This document shows, in pieces, positions 13,099 through 21,434 of a stretch of DNA of 64,000 nucleotides. The DNA comes from Candidatus Berkelbacteria bacterium. GTDB lineage: Bacteria; Patescibacteriota; UBA1384; JACPKC01. Positions within the stretch are counted from its first letter, which is position 1, and every line of letters starts with the position of its first letter. The notes beneath the pieces were generated by a model. It was not told where the DNA came from. It was given only the letters and a program-made list of their open reading frames with translations, and ran no database searches. The position numbers were made by a program, and so were the translations under genes. Location: assembly GCA_016187225.1 (NCBI GenBank), contig JACPKC010000007.1, positions 7,654 through 71,653 of the forward strand, read 5' to 3'.

Positions 13099-13174
13099 TG
13101 GTGTTCCCGGCGGGAGTCGAACCCACAGTCTTCGGCTTCGGAGGCCGACGCTTTATCCATTAAGCTACGGGAAC
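13099..13174 (-). tRNA. tRNA-Arg (anticodon CCG), CCA encoded
   Basis: Manual fold: acceptor GTTCCCG/CGGGAAC, D-arm GCTT-AATGGATA-AAGC, anticodon arm TCGGC-CTCCGAA-GCCGA, T-arm GTGGG-TTCGACT-CCCGC, discriminator A, then CCA. Confidence 0.8.
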
Positions 13175-13275
13175 AAAAGCCGCTTCGCGCCAATAATCAA
13201 TTCCCCAATATCAATGACCAATGAGATTGGAATTTGTGATTTGGTTTTTGAATGTTCCCTGCTATCGATAAGACT

Positions 13276-13351
13276 TGGCGCGCCCGACAGGACTTGAACC
13301 TGTGACCTCCAGCTCCGCAAGCTGGCGCTCTATCCACTGAGCTACGGGCGC
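13276..13351 (-). tRNA. tRNA-Arg with apparent anticodon GCG (loop TTGCGGA), CCA encoded
   Basis: Manual fold: acceptor GCGCCCG/CGGGCGC, D-arm GCTC-AGTGGATA-GAGC, anticodon arm CCAGC-TTGCGGA-GCTGG, T-arm ACAGG-TTCAAGT-CCTGT, discriminator G, then CCA. G37 after the anticodon is consistent with a CGN decoder. Confidence 0.65.
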
Positions 13352-13814
13352 AAATTTATCTTAATAATTGATCGGCAAGTTTTCGTAGTGCCAGTTTACT
13401 TTACTAGAATTGACCATAAAGCCCTTGCCCGCGGCCGGATTGATCGCGAATTAACAATTACTTTTGTATCAGGCGTCGATCATAATGATTTAGCACCCAG
13501 CGCGCCTCTTGGTCGCGGCCAAGATCCGCTACTCATTCAATAGTGTATTGGGCATGCTTTTGAGGGTCGACGGTTTTTGGATCGGTATCCCAAAACAACG
13601 TCGGCCGAAATTTCATACTTTCATTTTAACCTGATTAAGATCAATTTTCAACTTTAGCCACAATGTGTTCAAAAGAAATTGAATTTCGTTTTAATCATCG
13701 CCATGACAATTTATTGGCAACTTTATTATCAAAGATTTCTCTTTGGAGTCTTTTGAGATCTATCATAAGTTTTGAACAAGTTGGTTGAGTAAATAATTTC
13801 GCTGAATGTAAAAC

Positions 13815-14057
13815 TTGGCGGTGAGATTTTACACTTTGCGCGAACCTTTTTTGAACGAAACGGCAACTGATTCGCTCCGCCGCCGCTCGCTGACGCTCGC
13901 CAGCCAGCAAAAAAGTTTTCTCTGCTTTTCTTTTGCGCGCGCCGGATTTTTTCTTCCTAACAGAGCAGGCGGCGGGGCTCAAACGCTCGGGCGCGGCGGA
14001 ATTCCCCCACCCCCCCTTCCGCCGCGCCCTCGCTGAGGCGGCGAAAAATTTTTGCGA
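13815..14057. repeat. Left inverted-repeat arm. Block X is 13815-13869 (55 bp) and block Y is 13954-14057 (104 bp), separated by 84 bp of non-repeated sequence.
   Basis: The reverse complement of 15933-16131 matches both blocks base-for-base. Only the spacer between the blocks differs (84 bp here, 40 bp in the right arm). Block Y contains a 13-bp-stem hairpin, GGGCGCGGCGGAA-(15-nt C-rich loop)-TTCCGCCGCGCCC. Confidence 0.85.
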
Positions 14058-14063
14058 TAAATC

Positions 14064-15047
14064 TTAGGTAGAAAGATATTTCTTTTTAAGCGAAATGGAC
14101 ATATAGCCAACGCCAATCATGGCAAGTCCCGCTATAACAAGAGCGAGAGGCCAACCTAATCCGCTTGAGAAATATTCAGAAGTGATTTTGAGAATATAGG
14201 CCATAAGAAAGAGTGTACCAAATGTAAGAAAGGCCTTACTCTTAATTTGAACGCTAAGAAATAACGCACCAAAAACGAGGCCGGGATAAATTAACTCCCA
14301 AAATACATTTTGGTTCGGCTTCCAACTTCCGAGCGTAAAAGCCGCCCCCAAAAAGCCGAGAATACCAAAGCCATAGAGAAAACCGGAAAGTGAAACACGC
14401 TCGTTTTTTGAAAAGGCATACCCTAACAACATATAAGTAATACCAGCGACTAATACACGGTATTCGTAGAATTTCCAATTGTCAAAATACGCACCGCCGC
14501 CAATCATAAAACTTGTGAAGCTGAAGAAAAGCCATGTTCCAAATAAAATACTAAACAAGGTAAAAATGTTTTTTCGGAACACAAGAAGCGACAATAAATA
14601 AGTTCCCAACATTATTCCTGAAATTAAACTTTGCGTTCCATAACTGCTGGCGTCAAAACCAGCGTTATCAAACACAACCCAAAGACCCATCGGCGTTACG
14701 AGGGCAGAAATAAGATAGAAGGCAGAGCCAACAGTTTCAGTACCTTTATTTTTGCTAAATAGTAATCCGACAAAATAGGCCGCTATGCCAGAGCCGAGCG
14801 TAGCCAAAACTTTTGTTCCAAATCCAAGTGTATGCCAATTTTGCCAAAGTAAAATTGAAATACCTAAAAAAACAATCGCGCTACCAATGTAGTATAAAAT
14901 TTCAGCGACACCGAGCTTTTTTGTCAAAACAACATCTGTTTTGATTCCGCTACCTGAATCGTAAGCCAAGTCTAATTCTTCTTTCGAAATTACTTTTTGC
15001 TCGGCGAGCGACTTTATGTATTGTAAAACTTCTTCTTTGGTTGTCAT
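14064..15047 (-). CDS. Polytopic membrane protein (hypothetical) with a ~55-aa cytoplasmic N-terminal domain
   Basis: 327 aa with about 8 TM helices. It sits in an AT-rich cassette, and its stop codon lies inside repeat block Y. Confidence 0.5.
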   Translation of the reverse strand: MTTKEEVLQYIKSLAEQKVISKEELDLAYDSGSGIKTDVVLTKKLGVAEILYYIGSAIVFLGISILLWQNWHTLGFGTKVLATLGSGIAAYFVGLLFSKNKGTETVGSAFYLISALVTPMGLWVVFDNAGFDASSYGTQSLISGIMLGTYLLSLLVFRKNIFTLFSILFGTWLFFSFTSFMIGGGAYFDNWKFYEYRVLVAGITYMLLGYAFSKNERVSLSGFLYGFGILGFLGAAFTLGSWKPNQNVFWELIYPGLVFGALFLSVQIKSKAFLTFGTLFLMAYILKITSEYFSSGLGWPLALVIAGLAMIGVGYMSISLKKKYLST

Positions 15048-15053
15048 ATATTT

Positions 15054-15584
15054 TTATTTTATCCAGCCAATAAAACGGAAATTATTATAATACGAGCTTC
15101 CGTTTAGCTGGAGATTTAATTTTTTACTTACATTATGACCTGATAAATATCGGGCATTGTAATCTGTTCCTCCCCAGAAAAACGGAAAGAAGCCACTATC
15201 CCGACTTCCATAAACCACCTCAAAATCATCGGACGATTTTACACTCGAATCAAGATTCAAGTTTTGAGCCTCTGTGAAAGAAATTTCTTTAGCCTCATTT
15301 TTGGCAACATCATAAATATACAATTTTGATTCCACTCGTGGCGGGTTGTAATTTTGATTTTCTGGTTGCTTAATCTCATTTTTTACCAACTTATCATTTT
15401 GAACAGAATACTGATGACCGCTGTTGTAGTAATAGTAGGAATCATCACCACTTACATATAAAAAATTAAAATGTGGTTTTATAAAAAGTCCGGGCAGATA
15501 AATGCTACCAGCCACGAACAAAATCATCAATATTGGAATAGAGATACCTAAAATTAAAGTTATATTTTTTTTGATTATTTCCAT
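15054..15584 (-). CDS. N-terminally anchored hypothetical protein (Tyr/Asn-rich ectodomain)
   Basis: 176 aa with a single N-terminal TM helix (ITLILGISIPILMILFVAGSIYL). The gene is AT-rich and sits 6 nt downstream of the previous gene in an operon-like arrangement. Confidence 0.45.
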   Translation of the reverse strand: MEIIKKNITLILGISIPILMILFVAGSIYLPGLFIKPHFNFLYVSGDDSYYYYNSGHQYSVQNDKLVKNEIKQPENQNYNPPRVESKLYIYDVAKNEAKEISFTEAQNLNLDSSVKSSDDFEVVYGSRDSGFFPFFWGGTDYNARYLSGHNVSKKLNLQLNGSSYYNNFRFIGWIK

Positions 15585-15643
15585 ATGTTTATATTTTACA
15601 TTATTATTTATAAAATTAAAATGCCGACAATGATAGTATATCC

Positions 15644-15841
15644 CTATTTTAATAAATCCTCCATAGGAACACCTAATGACTTGGCGATTTTTTGAATTGT
15701 TTGAACACTTGGTTTTGTAACAACGCCACCCTCAATTTTCGTAAGGGTAGAATATTTGATGTCCGCTTTCTTCGCCAAGTCGTCTTGCGTCAATCCTTGT
15801 TTTGTTCGTATTCGTTTTATGTTTTGTGATATTGTTGCCAT
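15644..15841 (-). CDS. XRE-family helix-turn-helix transcriptional regulator
   Basis: MATISQNIKRIRTKQGLTQDDLAKKADIKYSTLTKIEGG...IQKIAKSLGVPMEDLL is a textbook HTH_XRE/Cro-C1 domain. The start is taken at the internal Met, because the longer ORF begins in low-complexity sequence. Confidence 0.8.
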   Translation of the reverse strand: MATISQNIKRIRTKQGLTQDDLAKKADIKYSTLTKIEGGVVTKPSVQTIQKIAKSLGVPMEDLLK

Positions 15842-15932
15842 AATATCCAAAGTTTGATAGTATAGAGTTATGAGGTTATTTGTCCTTTGCTCACAAACTA
15901 ATGATAGCAAACTTTGTGGATTTTTACCAGTA

Positions 15933-16131
15933 ATCGCAAAAATTTTTCGCCGCCTCAGCGAGGGCGCGGCGGAAGGGGGGGTGGGGGAATTCCGCCGCGC
16001 CCGAGCGTTTGAGCCCCGCCGCCTGCTCTGTTAGGAGCAGAAGCCAGCAAAAAAGTTTTCTTTTCCTTTTAGACAGTTGCCGTTTCGTTCAAAAAAGGTT
16101 CGCGCAAAGTGTAAAATCTCACCGCCAATAG
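15933..16131. repeat. Right inverted-repeat arm. Y' is 15933-16036 and X' is 16077-16131.
   Basis: Exact reverse-complement match to 13954-14057 and 13815-13869. The outer end terminates in CCGCCAA, which is the reverse complement of TTGGCGG. Confidence 0.85.
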
Positions 16132-16243
16132 AAACTTCGCGATTTGAAAGGGTTGCTCCGCGCGGCCGCGCTCCGCAAAATGGTTTGCCGCTTCGCGGCA
16201 AAAAGGCTCACTGGGCAAAAATCAAAGACGGCGGATTTGTTTG
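16125..16243. repeat. Inverted repeat Z flanking the 5' side of the recombinase gene
   Basis: CCGCCAATAGAAACTTCGCGATTTGAAAGGGTTGCTCCGCGCGGCCGCG...GACGGCGGATTTGTT. The reverse complement of 17655-17785 is identical except for an 11-bp insertion (AGGCGGCCGCG) in the right copy. It shares the 7-bp end CCGCCAA with X'. Confidence 0.85.
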
Positions 16244-16262
16244 TTTCGTATCTAAAAACAAT

Positions 16263-17834
16263 ATGAATATCAAACCAAAATATTTTCTCTACGCTCGTAA
16301 ATCAACGGAAGATGACGACCGCCAAGTAATGAGCATTGAGGCACAACTTTTTGAATTGCGAGAATATGCGCGTAGAGAAAATTTTGAAATTCTGGAAGAA
16401 TTTCAAGAGGCGAAAAGCGCAAAGACACCGGGTAGAGAAATTTTCGGCGAAATGATGGCGAAGGTAGAAAAATCTGACGGCGTAGGAATTTTGGCGTGGC
16501 ATCCTGACCGTTTGGCTCGCAATTCCATTGACGGCGGACGCATCATTTACGCCGTAGACACGCACAAAATTATTTCTTTGCGCTTTTCGACATTTTGGTT
16601 TGAACCAACCCCGCAAGGTCTCTTTATGTTGCAAGTGGCGTTCGGACAATCTAAATATTACTCGGACAATTTGGCTGAAAATATCAAGCGAGGAATCCGC
16701 CAAAAATTGCGTCGGAAAGAGTGGCTCGGTCTCGCGCTTTTCGGTTATCAAAACAATCCGCTAAAACGCAATATTGAGCCGCACCCGACCGAAGCGCGGA
16801 TTGTGAAGTTGGCATTTGAGGAATATGCGAAAGGTGGCCACTCTTTCGTTTCTCTTGCGCAATTTTTGGCGGATCTCGGCGTTGTTTCCAAAAACCGAAC
16901 GCCACTTGCCAAAGTTTCCATCAAACGACTTCTAACAAACAAAGCATATCTTGGTTTTCTGAAACACAAGGGCGAATGGTTGGATGGAAACTTTGAACCA
17001 ATTCTTTCTCCCGCATTGTTTGAAGCCGTGCAGAAAATTTTGAAAACGAAAGAGCGGCCGCGCCATCGCCGCGCAAAACACGATTTTCCATTCACCGGAT
17101 TATTTCGTTGCGCGGAGTGCGGCAGTATGATTTCAGCACAATGGGCGGTCAATCGCTGGGGCACTAAATATCGCTATTACAGATGTTCCAAAAAACGCGG
17201 CCGCTGTTCGCAACCATATATCCAAGAATCGGAGCTGGCGCGGCAAATCAAGGCACGGCTTCAAACAATCTCGCCTTGCGACAATCTCACTGATTGGATG
17301 TTGGATAAAGTGAAAGAATGGAAACGCGAGGAAACTTCCGCATCGCAAAGCGAGTTTCAAAATCTTTCCGAAAATATCAAAATGGCAGAAGCGAAAATGG
17401 AAAAATTAGTTTCCACATATTTAGATGGCGACATTCCCAAACAAACTTATCTCAAAAAGAAAGACGAGATTTTGCTCGCTTCTGCCGTTTTGGAACAAAG
17501 GAAGAAAGATTTTGAAAACGGGAGAAAAAATTGGGTCGAACCCCTGCGGGAATGGATTTTAGATACGAAACAAGCCGATTTTTTGAGCAAATCGGAAAAT
17601 TATCACGAAATCAAAACATTTGTTCAAAAAATCGGAACGAACCCTCGGGTTCGTAACAAATCCGCCGTCTTTGATTTTTGCCCAGTGAGCCTTTTTGCCG
17701 CGAAGCGGCAAACCATTTTGCGGAGCGCGGCCGCCTCGCGGCCGCGCGGAGCAACCCTTTCAAATCGCGAAGTTTCTATTGGCGGAGACGGGAGGATTCG
17801 AACCTCCGAGAGGATTGCTCCCCTAACGCATTAG
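16263..17834 (+). CDS. Large serine recombinase (resolvase/invertase catalytic domain, recombinase domain and zinc-ribbon)
   Basis: N-terminal YARKSTEDDDRQ (catalytic Ser within the Y-x-R-x-S-T motif). A C-terminal CAECGSMISAQ...YYRCS zinc ribbon is followed by a coiled-coil region, which is typical of large serine recombinases. The start is taken at MNIKPK; the ORF track's upstream start at 16077 lies inside repeat Z. The 3' 180 nt read through repeat Z' into the tRNA-Ser gene. Confidence 0.8.
   Translation: MNIKPKYFLYARKSTEDDDRQVMSIEAQLFELREYARRENFEILEEFQEAKSAKTPGREIFGEMMAKVEKSDGVGILAWHPDRLARNSIDGGRIIYAVDTHKIISLRFSTFWFEPTPQGLFMLQVAFGQSKYYSDNLAENIKRGIRQKLRRKEWLGLALFGYQNNPLKRNIEPHPTEARIVKLAFEEYAKGGHSFVSLAQFLADLGVVSKNRTPLAKVSIKRLLTNKAYLGFLKHKGEWLDGNFEPILSPALFEAVQKILKTKERPRHRRAKHDFPFTGLFRCAECGSMISAQWAVNRWGTKYRYYRCSKKRGRCSQPYIQESELARQIKARLQTISPCDNLTDWMLDKVKEWKREETSASQSEFQNLSENIKMAEAKMEKLVSTYLDGDIPKQTYLKKKDEILLASAVLEQRKKDFENGRKNWVEPLREWILDTKQADFLSKSENYHEIKTFVQKIGTNPRVRNKSAVFDFCPVSLFAAKRQTILRSAAASRPRGATLSNREVSIGGDGRIRTSERIAPLTH
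17655..17785. repeat. Inverted repeat Z' (right copy, 131 bp including an 11-bp insertion). Its outer end, TTGGCGG, overlaps the tRNA-Ser 3' end.
   Basis: See Z. The terminal ATTGGCGG spans 17778-17785 and the tRNA-Ser CCA is encoded at 17780-17782. Confidence 0.85.
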
Positions 17835-17869
17835 CAGTGCGTTGCCTTCAGCCACTCGGCCACGTCTCC
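17780..17869 (-). tRNA. tRNA-Ser (anticodon GCT), type II with a long variable arm, CCA encoded
   Basis: Manual fold: acceptor GGAGACG/CGTCTCC, D-arm GCC-GAGTGGCTGAA-GGC, anticodon arm ACGCA-CTGCTAA-TGCGT, variable arm of about 17 nt, T-arm GGAGG-TTCGAAT-CCTCC, discriminator G, then CCA. Confidence 0.85.
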
Positions 17870-20366: not shown

Positions 20367-21434
20367 CTATTTTATCACAGAGTCAGTCTCTTCCTTGGGA
20401 GCAGCCGAAAGAGCTGATTGATTATGGACTTTTTCAATAATCAAGGCGCGCACCTTGGTCATGGCAGGCGGCTGATTTTCAAAGTAAGCGCGAGCGGCGT
20501 CTCGACCCTGGCCAAGCTTAATTTCACCCCACTGAAACCACGAGCCGGCTTTTTCCAAAATGCCATGTTCAACGCCAAGATCGAGAATATCGCCGGCGGC
20601 GCTGATGCCGCGCGGAAAAATTATCTCAAATTCGGCTTTAGTAAAGGGCGGGGCAACTTTATTTTTGACAACTTTGGCTCGCACGCGGTTGCCGATCACG
20701 CGATCGCCCTGCTTAAGCTGTTCCGTGCGACGAATTTCAATCCGAACCGATGAGTAAAACTTGAGCGCCATGCCGCCGGTTGTTGTTTCCGGATTGCCAA
20801 ACATCACACCGATTTTCATGCGGAGTTGATTGATAAATATAAGACAGGTTTTCGATTTTGAAACTGCCGCGGTGAGTTTGCGCAAAGCCTGACTCATTAA
20901 CCGTGCCTGAACACCCATCTGTGAATCACCCATCTCGCCTTCGATTTCTGAACGCGGCACCAAGGCCGCAACTGAATCAACGACAATCACGTCAATTGCA
21001 TTTGAGCGAATCAAGGTTTCGGCAATCTCAAGCGCTTGCTCGCCCGAATCAGGTTGGCTGACCAATAAATCTTCAAGTTTCAAACCAATGTTGCGCGCGT
21101 ATTCAGGGTTAAAGGCGTGCTCGGCATCGATAAAAGCCGCAAGTCCGCCCAGCTTTTGAGCTTCAGCCGTAATGTGCATCGCGAGTGTAGTTTTGCCCGA
21201 ACTCTCCGGCCCATAAATTTCGATAATGCGGCCCCGAGGCACGCCGCCAACGCCTAAAGCTAAATCCAGGCTTAGCGAACCAGTCGGGATAACCTGAACA
21301 TCGAGCTTGCGATTATCGCTTAAGGTTGTAATTGAACCCTTGCCAAACTGCTTTTCGATCGTTGCCAAAGCAACTTCAAGAGCTTGCCTCCGCGCTTGCG
21401 ATTCCGTTGCATCCGGAATCGAACTTTTGGTCAT
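20367..21434 (-). CDS. recA: Recombinase RecA
   Basis: Walker [18 protein letters not shown], the L1/L2 loop regions and 355 aa overall. Unambiguous. Confidence 0.95.

Follow-up and report, generated by a model that had tools for sequence, protein, structure and literature searches.

A stretch of 64,000 nt from a Candidatus Berkelbacteria bacterium (contig JACPKC010000007.1; hereafter the window) contains, between positions 13815 and 17785, what is probably the integrated copy of a small mobile element of the Candidate Phyla Radiation (CPR)/Patescibacteria. The element, 3,971 bp in length, encodes a large serine recombinase, lies against the 3' end of a tRNA-Ser(GCU) gene, belongs to a family that inserts at the acceptor ends of tRNA and transfer-messenger RNA (tmRNA) genes, and would carry a second copy of its own attachment site (attP), built into the element in inverted orientation.

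Three junctions and a predicted second, inverted attP

The element comprises a cargo block of three genes (13815–16128) and a recombinase block (16122–17785), each bracketed by inverted repeats, as an initial annotation of this DNA had proposed. A repeat scan returned an X pair (13815–13869 and 16074–16128, 55 nt) and a Y pair (13955–14058 and 15933–16036, 104 nt) around the cargo, both 100% complementary, and around the recombinase gene a Z pair in two parts (16119–16170 and 17737–17788, 52 nt, 98%; 16162–16241 and 17655–17734, 80 nt, 100%), which in sum sets ~120 nt against 131 nt with a single 11-nt indel within a GC palindrome. X, Y and Z each occur at just their two places in the window, where 0 would be expected. 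We refer to the cargo repeats as B arms. The left one (13815–14058, plus strand; profile match at 13819–13941) runs from X through a variable spacer (13870–13954) to Y, which holds a 12-bp GC hairpin, and the right one is its inverted copy (15933–16128, minus strand), made of Y' (15933–16036), a short spacer (16037–16073) and X' (16074–16128). The repeats around the recombinase gene are the C arms: the downstream arm Z' (17655–17785, plus strand) codes for the C-terminal tail of the recombinase and has the core at its end, and the upstream arm Z (16122–16241, minus strand) is an inverted copy of the 3' end of the gene with an 11-nt deletion.

The core TTGGCGG is common to both blocks and was seen at three junctions, whose sequences proved identical to those given in the initial annotation. 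It lies at 13815–13821 (plus strand) on the left, at 16122–16128 (inverted, minus strand) in the middle, and at 17779–17785 (plus strand) on the right, where it overlaps acceptor positions 71–72, the discriminator base and the CCA of the target gene, tRNA-Ser(GCU) (17780–17869, minus strand; found by ARAGORN and Rfam). The reverse complement of TTGGCGGAGA gives the 3' terminus of this tRNA-Ser(gct), made up of the last acceptor-stem bases, the discriminator base and CCA, and the target gene is intact because the element brings identical terminal bases. The bare 7-mer is frequent in the window (31 copies against 13.8 expected) and so means little by itself; the signal is its placement at the outer edge of every arm.

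With A for the left flank and D for the tRNA side, the left junction reads A-core-B, the right junction C-core-D and the middle junction, with its flanks, an intact inverted C-core-B. Since the left junction joins the halves A and B and the right one the halves C and D, C-core-B corresponds to attP and the outer junctions to the hybrid sites attL and attR. The outer junctions are indeed reciprocal hybrids that share a short core in direct orientation, in the window as in 22 further loci described below. Read from sequence, the left and right junctions are thus attL and attR, and the middle one is a predicted second attP, inverted, which is a fixed part of the design of the family. Because each outer arm, B or C, has an inner mirror image, cargo and recombinase gene each look bracketed by inverted repeats.

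The unit ends in a B arm on the left and in a C arm on the right, and these two are not inverted repeats of one another; each has its mirror copy inside the element. The inverted outer ends and the target-site duplication of a terminal-inverted-repeat transposon or insertion sequence (IS) are both lacking, and the core is a crossover sequence shared at a specific tRNA position rather than a duplication of an arbitrary target. The initial annotation had taken the middle junction for a chimera of the two outer sites left behind by an inversion. It is an exact chimera and a site-specific recombination junction, but no prior inversion is needed to explain it, as an intact inverted attP is present in 50 of 57 loci (and four more). 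Two other origins were considered and rejected. Successive insertion of two modules would put the middle core in direct orientation, and it is inverted in 23 of 23 loci; loss of polarity through a palindromic crossover dinucleotide does not fit the minimal core, TGA (locus L070), which contains none.

The same layout in other Patescibacteria

Homologues of the recombinase number more than 6,000 at E ≤ 1e-20, the best of them 60–94% identical, and nearly all named ones come from Patescibacteria. A genome scan gave 568 stretches that encode a relative, the best 80 loci of which were examined; arm profiles were built and then used to search all loci. A single layout, B> cargo B< C< rec> C> tRNA<, was found in ~70 relatives. 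Almost every locus with both flanks has a 115–140-nt near-perfect inverted repeat around the recombinase gene, and in 22 loci a second block of 1.3–7 kb with inverted repeats of 150–320 nt adjoins the first with an overlap of 3–14 nt. The three-junction logic (A-core-B on the left, inverted C-core-B in the middle, C-core-D with D the tRNA on the right) holds in 23 of 23 loci including the window, which bears out the view that the junctions, anchored on a tRNA 3' end, arose by site-specific recombination through a large serine recombinase. In the 22 further loci the cores are 3–14 nt long and differ in sequence from that of the window, and they always lie at the acceptor end. The core consists of tRNA positions 71–73 plus a few trailer bases, down to the TGA mentioned above. 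The outer left half-site (A) is not conserved, and the tRNA side always brings the T-arm, with a CGAACC motif whose distance from the core is 13 nt in the tRNA and 19 nt in the B arm. By profile search an intact C-core-B adjoins the recombinase gene on its upstream side in 50 of 57 loci, with four more recognized by eye.

Inverted repeats of this length could in principle be products of assembly, through a chimeric contig, a collapsed repeat or a fold-back, and palindromic artefact contigs do arise around these elements: L083 (Ga0210031_1001458, 14,266 nt) is a perfect palindrome about its midpoint, and many short-read contigs break at the arms, as is expected for repeats near the k-mer length. 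Such an origin is nevertheless so improbable that we give it almost no weight. The same architecture is found in ~70 independent assemblies made with different assemblers, including the complete chromosomes OY970382.1 and CP060229.1 and an 831-kb contig, and the arm sequences vary between loci and match within each locus. Artefact had been named as the observation that would overturn the initial annotation, and these chromosomes dispose of it.

Where the downstream arm is complete, it stops at the 3' end of a convergent tRNA gene in 58 of 70 cases and at a tmRNA gene in 3 of 70; the tmRNA 3'-end insertions are those of L063, L065 and L067. The tRNA targets are Ser (all anticodons), Glu, Arg, Ala, Val, Lys, Gly and Leu. 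Elements with near-identical arm ends, whose recombinases are ~75% identical to the query, occupy Ser(cga), Ser(gga), Ser(gct) and Arg(acg) (L010, L012, L013, L016, L019 and L030), and recombinases 91–94% identical to that of the window are encoded next to Ser(gct), Ser(tga) and Ser(cga) in metagenome-assembled genomes labelled Staskawiczbacteria, Woesebacteria and Parcubacteria.

A recombinase frame open across the core

The recombinase open reading frame (ORF; 16263–17834, plus strand, ATG at 16263) has 523 codons as read here and matches the Pfam families Resolvase (PF00239), Recombinase (PF07508) and Zn_ribbon_recom (PF13408), all over their cut-offs; these resolvase, recombinase and zinc-ribbon domains are those of a large serine recombinase of the integrase type. 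It aligned with SPbeta SprA over query residues 10–421 and with the A118 integrase over 220–403, and homology extends to CcrB, XisF and SPbeta SprA/YokA. The segment YARKSTEDDDRQ (residues 10–21) aligned with YLRRSRQDMER of SprA, a YxRxS-type motif that contains the predicted catalytic serine. At 523 codons and with integrase-type domains the protein is unlike a Hin/Gin invertase (~190 aa with a C-terminal helix-turn-helix (HTH)), and an IS607-type assignment finds a weak match in the catalytic domain alone (E = 1.3e-4, 21.6 bits against a cut-off of 110). An exact look-up of the protein returned no record. A collection of viral contigs held no relatives of the recombinase, and hence there is no sign of phage origin.

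The initial annotation had placed the recombinase gene within the Z/Z' repeats. The gene is bracketed by them, but its frame does not end there: it stays open to 17834, through Z', through the core and then through 49 nt of the antisense strand of the tRNA gene. Across the family, 64 of 68 loci have a frame that runs on over the C arm and the core without a stop, indels in the C arm are multiples of three, and the conserved end of the tail reads ...LSxxEVS[IF]CG, with stop codons falling at arbitrary points in the tRNA antisense strand or the flank. We estimate ~0.03 stops per codon at this base composition, so an open frame across the core is not due to chance. The last residues of the recombinase would depend on what the 3' copy of attP is joined to.

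The upstream C arm probably forms the 5' leader of the recombinase messenger RNA (mRNA). In ~29 loci the gene also has a 16–25-nt inverted repeat pair, mostly 100% complementary, with one member 5' of the start codon and the other inside the gene. The window has such a pair, in which the 22 nt immediately before the start codon (16241–16262, plus strand) pair with the codons for WILDTKQ (17552–17573). Together with the 131-nt arm, this leader repeat could give the full-length mRNA a panhandle fold in which the start site is hidden. A search for consensus RNA structure in the C arm with RNAalifold gave no strong consensus (4 pairs). By eye, the C arms contain GC-rich hairpins with apparently compensatory changes, for example GYCGC-GAAG-GCGRC (alignment A1, ~columns 49–61 and 89–114).

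Cargo genes and a promoter-like site in the B arm

The cargo of the window consists of three genes on the minus strand. The first (14064–15047) encodes a 327-aa multi-pass membrane protein that is weakly DUF2157-like (PF09925, E = 9.6e-7, under the curated cut-off), the second (15054–15584) a 176-aa protein that matches no family and has a membrane anchor at its N-terminus, and the third (15644–15841) a 65-aa XRE/Cro-type HTH protein (PF01381, E = 7.6e-17) whose gene is directed away from that of the recombinase. A small HTH gene adjoins the middle junction on the strand opposite the recombinase in at least 26 loci, with two exceptions, and is a near-constant core gene of the family. Cargo is otherwise varied, with restriction-modification genes, methylases, ATPases, enzymes and membrane proteins, and the element contains no replication or nicking gene; replication and transfer machinery are absent. 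Nearly identical arms surround unrelated cargo in L008 and L009 and again in L063 and L065, which suggests that cargo is exchanged between arms. One locus (L057, 7508–7805) is almost cargo-free, its B arms being 43 nt apart and forming a near-palindrome of ~260 nt, and the sequence to the left of this near-palindrome recurs beside a tRNA-Glu gene 1.3 kb downstream of the recombinase gene.

When the B arm is read in the direction of the core, its layout is fixed: TTCAAA or TCGAAA, 17 or 18 nt, then TAnnAT, which ends ~5 nt before the core; at this register TA..AT is found in 32 of 54 loci and.A...T in 41 of 54. In the right B arm of the window the promoter-like site is at 16088–16117 (plus strand; TTCAAA, 18 nt, TAAAAT) and stops 4 nt short of the core, and in the left B arm it is at 13855–13826. 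At the middle junction the site faces the recombinase gene, and at the left junction it faces left, out to the flank. This sequence pattern suggests that the B arm may work as a promoter that fires across the core.

Orientation of the two blocks

The geometry of the element is that required for inversion: both blocks are bracketed by inverted repeats that end exactly at opposed cores. A double inversion switch operating in place, much like a shufflon, in which the recombinase flips both the cargo and its own block between the three cores as a device for phase variation, would therefore account for the repeats, and the initial annotation had likewise regarded the segments as invertible. Flipped arrangements do exist. 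The recombinase is reversed in three lineages (L005 and L043 in the genome set, and L094 of the lineage P0120) and the cargo in L015 and L001; two related contigs, L092 and L093, have their cargo in opposite orientations. Orientation is strongly biased, however, which speaks against free inversion. The recombinase converges on the tRNA in 58 loci against the three flipped lineages, and the HTH gene keeps its position at the middle junction in at least 26 loci against 2. Overall, orientation is ~95% uniform across genomes with rare exceptions, unlike what a free switch, frequent reciprocal homologous exchange or random use of two attP copies would give. Inversion, or use of the other attP copy, occurs but is rare.

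Other evidence points the same way. The difference between L092 and L093, which we had considered as proof of inversion and dropped, spans a 372-nt repeat that exceeds the assembler k-mer of 141, so that the path taken by the assembler may be arbitrary. The cargo has no alternative gene halves for an inversion to switch. The element is clearly mobile, being found at different tRNAs, in different host lineages and in tandem arrays, and in the established model attP-type sites do not pair with attP, attL or attR. We consider such a switch unlikely. Nor would a recombinase gene inside its own invertible segment be without precedent, as had been supposed, the Salmonella hin gene lying inside the segment that it inverts.

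Identity of the arms

Within an element the two copies of an arm have a median identity of 100%, for B and C arms alike. Compared with the nearest other element, identity falls to 68% (B arm) and 73% (C arm). This concerted evolution agrees with the earlier proposal that the arms are kept identical by ongoing recombination or gene conversion. In some loci the arms have decayed to 77–92%. A conservative crossover at a 2-bp overlap cannot homogenize the flanks, and conversion or copying must therefore be part of the biology of the element.

One way in which copying could come about is a transfer step through a single strand, for example following DNA uptake. In such a step the folded strand would pair the inner B-core-C with the outer arms and template a double-stranded attP, so that the arms would be recopied at each transfer. 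The inner site is the exact complement of the joined outer ends, as this requires, and the step would supply the homogenization that a conservative crossover cannot, the arms being ~100% identical within and ~30% diverged between elements. Arm identities range from 100% down to 77% across loci, as if decaying after insertion, and the retained orientation counts against frequent reciprocal homologous exchange as the source of identity. The likeness of mirrored sites acting together to the folded attP of phage CTX, and of arms identical at insertion to the two long terminal repeats (LTRs) of a retroelement, is an analogy for such a step. Yet we judge it improbable. The single-stranded stage would be hypothetical, and a gene for replication or nicking is absent from the element. 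Serine recombinases cut both strands, and their action on a folded stem and a chromosome would leave hairpin-capped breaks. Ordinary gene conversion between arms is also within reach of the host, which has a RecA gene (20367–21434) at a distance of 2.5 kb from the element. The annotation of the Logan contig L090 places genes for a phosphoenolpyruvate (PEP)-utilising enzyme, sigma-70, FtsK and RNase J next to this RecA gene.

The arms of the window differ from each other in two small respects. Z and Z' differ solely by the 11-nt indel between GCGGCCGC repeats in a GC palindrome (16162–16180 and 17718–17750); the deletion is on the upstream, non-coding copy Z, where L001, among other relatives, has the undeleted sequence. 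The spacers between X and Y are of unequal length in the two B arms (85 nt at 13870–13954 and 37 nt at 16037–16073), and both contain AGCCAGCAAAAAAGTTTTCT in direct orientation (13902–13929 and 16042–16069). In the B-arm region of L001 both spacer halves are found together as a small internal palindrome, and the two B arms of the window seem to have kept different halves of this palindrome after deletions.

Accretion, empty sites and a candidate free form

Tandem arrays were found at L001, L004, L018, L022, L045 and L096. In these the C-core-B of the next element replaces the tRNA junction, and in L004, L018, L022, L045 and L096 the newest element adjoins the tRNA. The arrays include a second, distantly related recombinase family of the same build, 30–61% identical in segments (also at L018, L022 and L079). 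The window itself bears a mark of this process. The 20 nt outside the left core (13795–13814), AATTTCGCTGAATGTAAAAC, are identical to the tip of a family-2 arm (C2). Together with the adjoining TTGGCGG they are identical to the junction nearest the recombinase gene in family-2 elements at tRNA-Ser(cga), on the metagenome contigs L081–L084; further left the homology ends. By this match the segment is evidently not native flank, and an older element would have sat at this tRNA and been mostly lost. No remnant of an older recombinase gene was detectable to the left of the element. Between tRNA-Arg(gcg) (13276–13351) and the element lie ~440 nt of AT-rich sequence (13352–13794) with no convincing gene, which may be the decayed remains of earlier insertions. 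Rfam 'plastid UTR' (untranslated region) families matched the plus strand at 13101–13351 and 17783–17834, below the gathering score; these matches are antisense to three tRNA genes, and we rejected them as real features.

The predicted empty site reads ...TGTAAAAC TTGGCGG AGACGGG..., or has the true native flank in the place of TGTAAAAC. Homologous tRNA genes lacking the element exist in other genomes, for example Ser(cga) in L070 and Glu(ttc) in L010, though these genomes are not close pairs. In the window locus, the two Logan contigs of the flanking PEP-utilising enzyme gene are 100% identical and end exactly at the tRNA CCA; they do so because k = 31 and other tRNA genes share the 3' 30-mer, and they are therefore silent on heterogeneity.

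Contigs of the lineage P0120, whose DNA is 100% identical over 1.9 kb, differ in what lies upstream of the recombinase gene. In two samples (L092 and L093) it is an attP-type junction, B-core-C, and in a third (L094) a tRNA-joined junction, tRNA-core-C. Such an alternation of junctions is as would be expected of integration and excision by way of the upstream attP copy. L092, L093 and a further contig, L086 (3,923 nt, with a 399-nt, 100% inverted repeat), each comprise a single recombinase gene, a single cargo and the two intact attP copies; flanking sequence is absent, and the contig ends fall inside the repeat. This is just what assembly of a 4-kb circle with two inverted repeats would yield, and the contigs are candidates for the free form. 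We also considered L096 as a circle and rejected it, since its elements stand in tandem and the neighbouring B arm is a different one.

A proposed life cycle and its difficulties

We propose that in the integrated element the inner attP lies between the divergent HTH and cargo genes and the recombinase gene and that its B half would serve as a promoter, whose transcripts would begin at the core, pass the C arm and enter the recombinase gene. Integration would normally go through the other attP copy, the one at the 3' end of that gene. The free form would probably be a ~4-kb circle in which two inverted, attP-bearing repeats separate the recombinase gene from the cargo, and the arm copies would be kept identical by gene conversion or copying.

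Several points weigh against this scheme. The two attP copies are identical over 190–450 bp and should be used equally often, but usage favours the one at the 3' end of the gene ~20-fold, a preference that we can account for only by unproven arguments, namely selection or action in cis. An intact attP in the chromosome is a hazard under the rules of large serine integrases, since it could recombine with other tRNA genes. The scheme does not account for arms that stay identical without their orientation being randomized. The conserved motif in the B arm could be a binding site of the recombinase, instead of or besides a promoter, and L086 and L092/L093 could equally be tandem copies. Lastly, a scan of metagenomes for the predicted chromosomal attachment site (attB) found no empty site, and returned instead the four family-2 junction loci at tRNA-Ser(cga). 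With these points counted, integration of a tRNA-targeting element with a built-in inverted attP is still the reading that we hold to be the likely one.

A bolder version of it, which we put forward tentatively and consider doubtful, is that mirrored attP sites and self-homogenizing arms make up a new way to run a serine-recombinase element: a circle with two equivalent inverted attP copies, whose arms would be regenerated or converted in the course of the life cycle (for example by break-induced conversion at the cores or by fold-back copying) and which would sense its integration through a promoter and a reading frame that cross the site. If this were true, there would be thousands of integrases guided by the tRNA T-arm, with a swappable core, which would be the main vehicle of gene flow in CPR bacteria and would follow rules undescribed for serine integrases.

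Relation to known systems

A full-text literature search found no description of the architecture or the family, which is not proof of absence; the claim that the architecture is undescribed stands to that extent. We regard the element as ordinary in kind, being an integrase island at a tRNA, whose construction is unusual and apparently undescribed; its family is very abundant in a branch of the bacteria that is poorly understood. The closest described case that we found is that of the Dehalococcoides ssrA genomic islands, which have the CcrB-like integrase DsiB, insert at the tmRNA 3' end, accrete in tandem and are flanked by 20-bp direct repeats (PMC3146451). The element resembles them in having a large serine recombinase gene at the edge by the target, a tRNA-like 3' end as that target, variable cargo, no replication or transfer machinery, and tandem pile-up. 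It differs in that the shared core is 3–14 nt rather than a 20-bp direct repeat, and in its inverted internal attP and the 115–450-bp homogenized inverted arms around recombinase gene and cargo, inverted repeats not being mentioned for the Dehalococcoides islands (PMC3146451). It also has no second small recombinase such as DsiA/CcrA.

The domain architecture, the homology and the attL/attR hybrids around a short identical core are shared with the integrases of phiC31, Bxb1 and A118 and with SPbeta SprA. The spacing of CGAACC from the core (19 nt in the B arm, 13 nt in the tRNA) recalls, by analogy, how the spacing of the zinc-ribbon-domain motif might distinguish attP from attB half-sites; in the model of Rutherford and Van Duyne this spacing reportedly differs between the two. 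Phage-type serine integrases differ in having a single attP of ~50 bp and genes with their own stop codons, and targeting of tRNA ends is unusual among them. We know of no such system with an intact attP inside the integrated element, and of none with long perfect inverted arms.

The repeat geometry alone is held in common with the yeast 2-micron plasmid (Flp/FRT), a small circle with two identical inverted repeats, a recombinase target in each and the recombinase gene in a unique region, a layout that the candidate circles L086, L092 and L093 would fit by analogy. Flp is a tyrosine recombinase and the 2-micron plasmid replicates autonomously and has its two isomers in equal amounts, whereas the element has a serine recombinase, has no replication gene and is integrated; its isomers are unequal, and recombination of attP with attP is unexpected for a large serine integrase. 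With the Hin, Gin and Cin inversion systems it shares a serine recombinase and opposed sites that bracket a segment. Those enzymes are ~190-aa proteins with a C-terminal HTH that work with an enhancer and Fis, unlike the integrase-type protein of more than 500 aa found here, and orientation bias and clear mobility further set the element apart from such switches.

Two further systems offer precedents for a promoter and a reading frame that cross the site. In Tn4451 the promoter of the large serine recombinase TnpX reads across the joined element ends and is present in the circle alone. In the myxophage Mx8 attP lies within the gene of the tyrosine recombinase intP, and integration alters the 3' end of the gene and the C-terminus of the protein. 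Both ideas seem to be combined in the present family. Unlike Tn4451, it has a permanent joined copy that would keep the promoter when integrated, and mirrored attP copies distinguish it from both. To our knowledge none of the 2-micron plasmid, Tn4451, Mx8 and CTX combines the traits of this family.

Significance

The family raises the questions of why an integrase element retains an intact attP in the chromosome, by what means arms of 115–450 bp stay identical without scrambling of orientation, and whether a stop-less frame across attP is a sensor of the integration state. Its enzymes appear to read the universally conserved T-arm of tRNA together with a short core that varies between lineages, which makes them of interest as integrases with predictable targets. 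CPR/Patescibacteria have tiny genomes and few recognised mobile elements. The family is very abundant among them, with more than 6,000 relatives of the recombinase, several copies per genome and tandem arrays, and, in carrying restriction-modification, membrane-protein and metabolic genes, it may be a major route of gene exchange in CPR/Patescibacteria.

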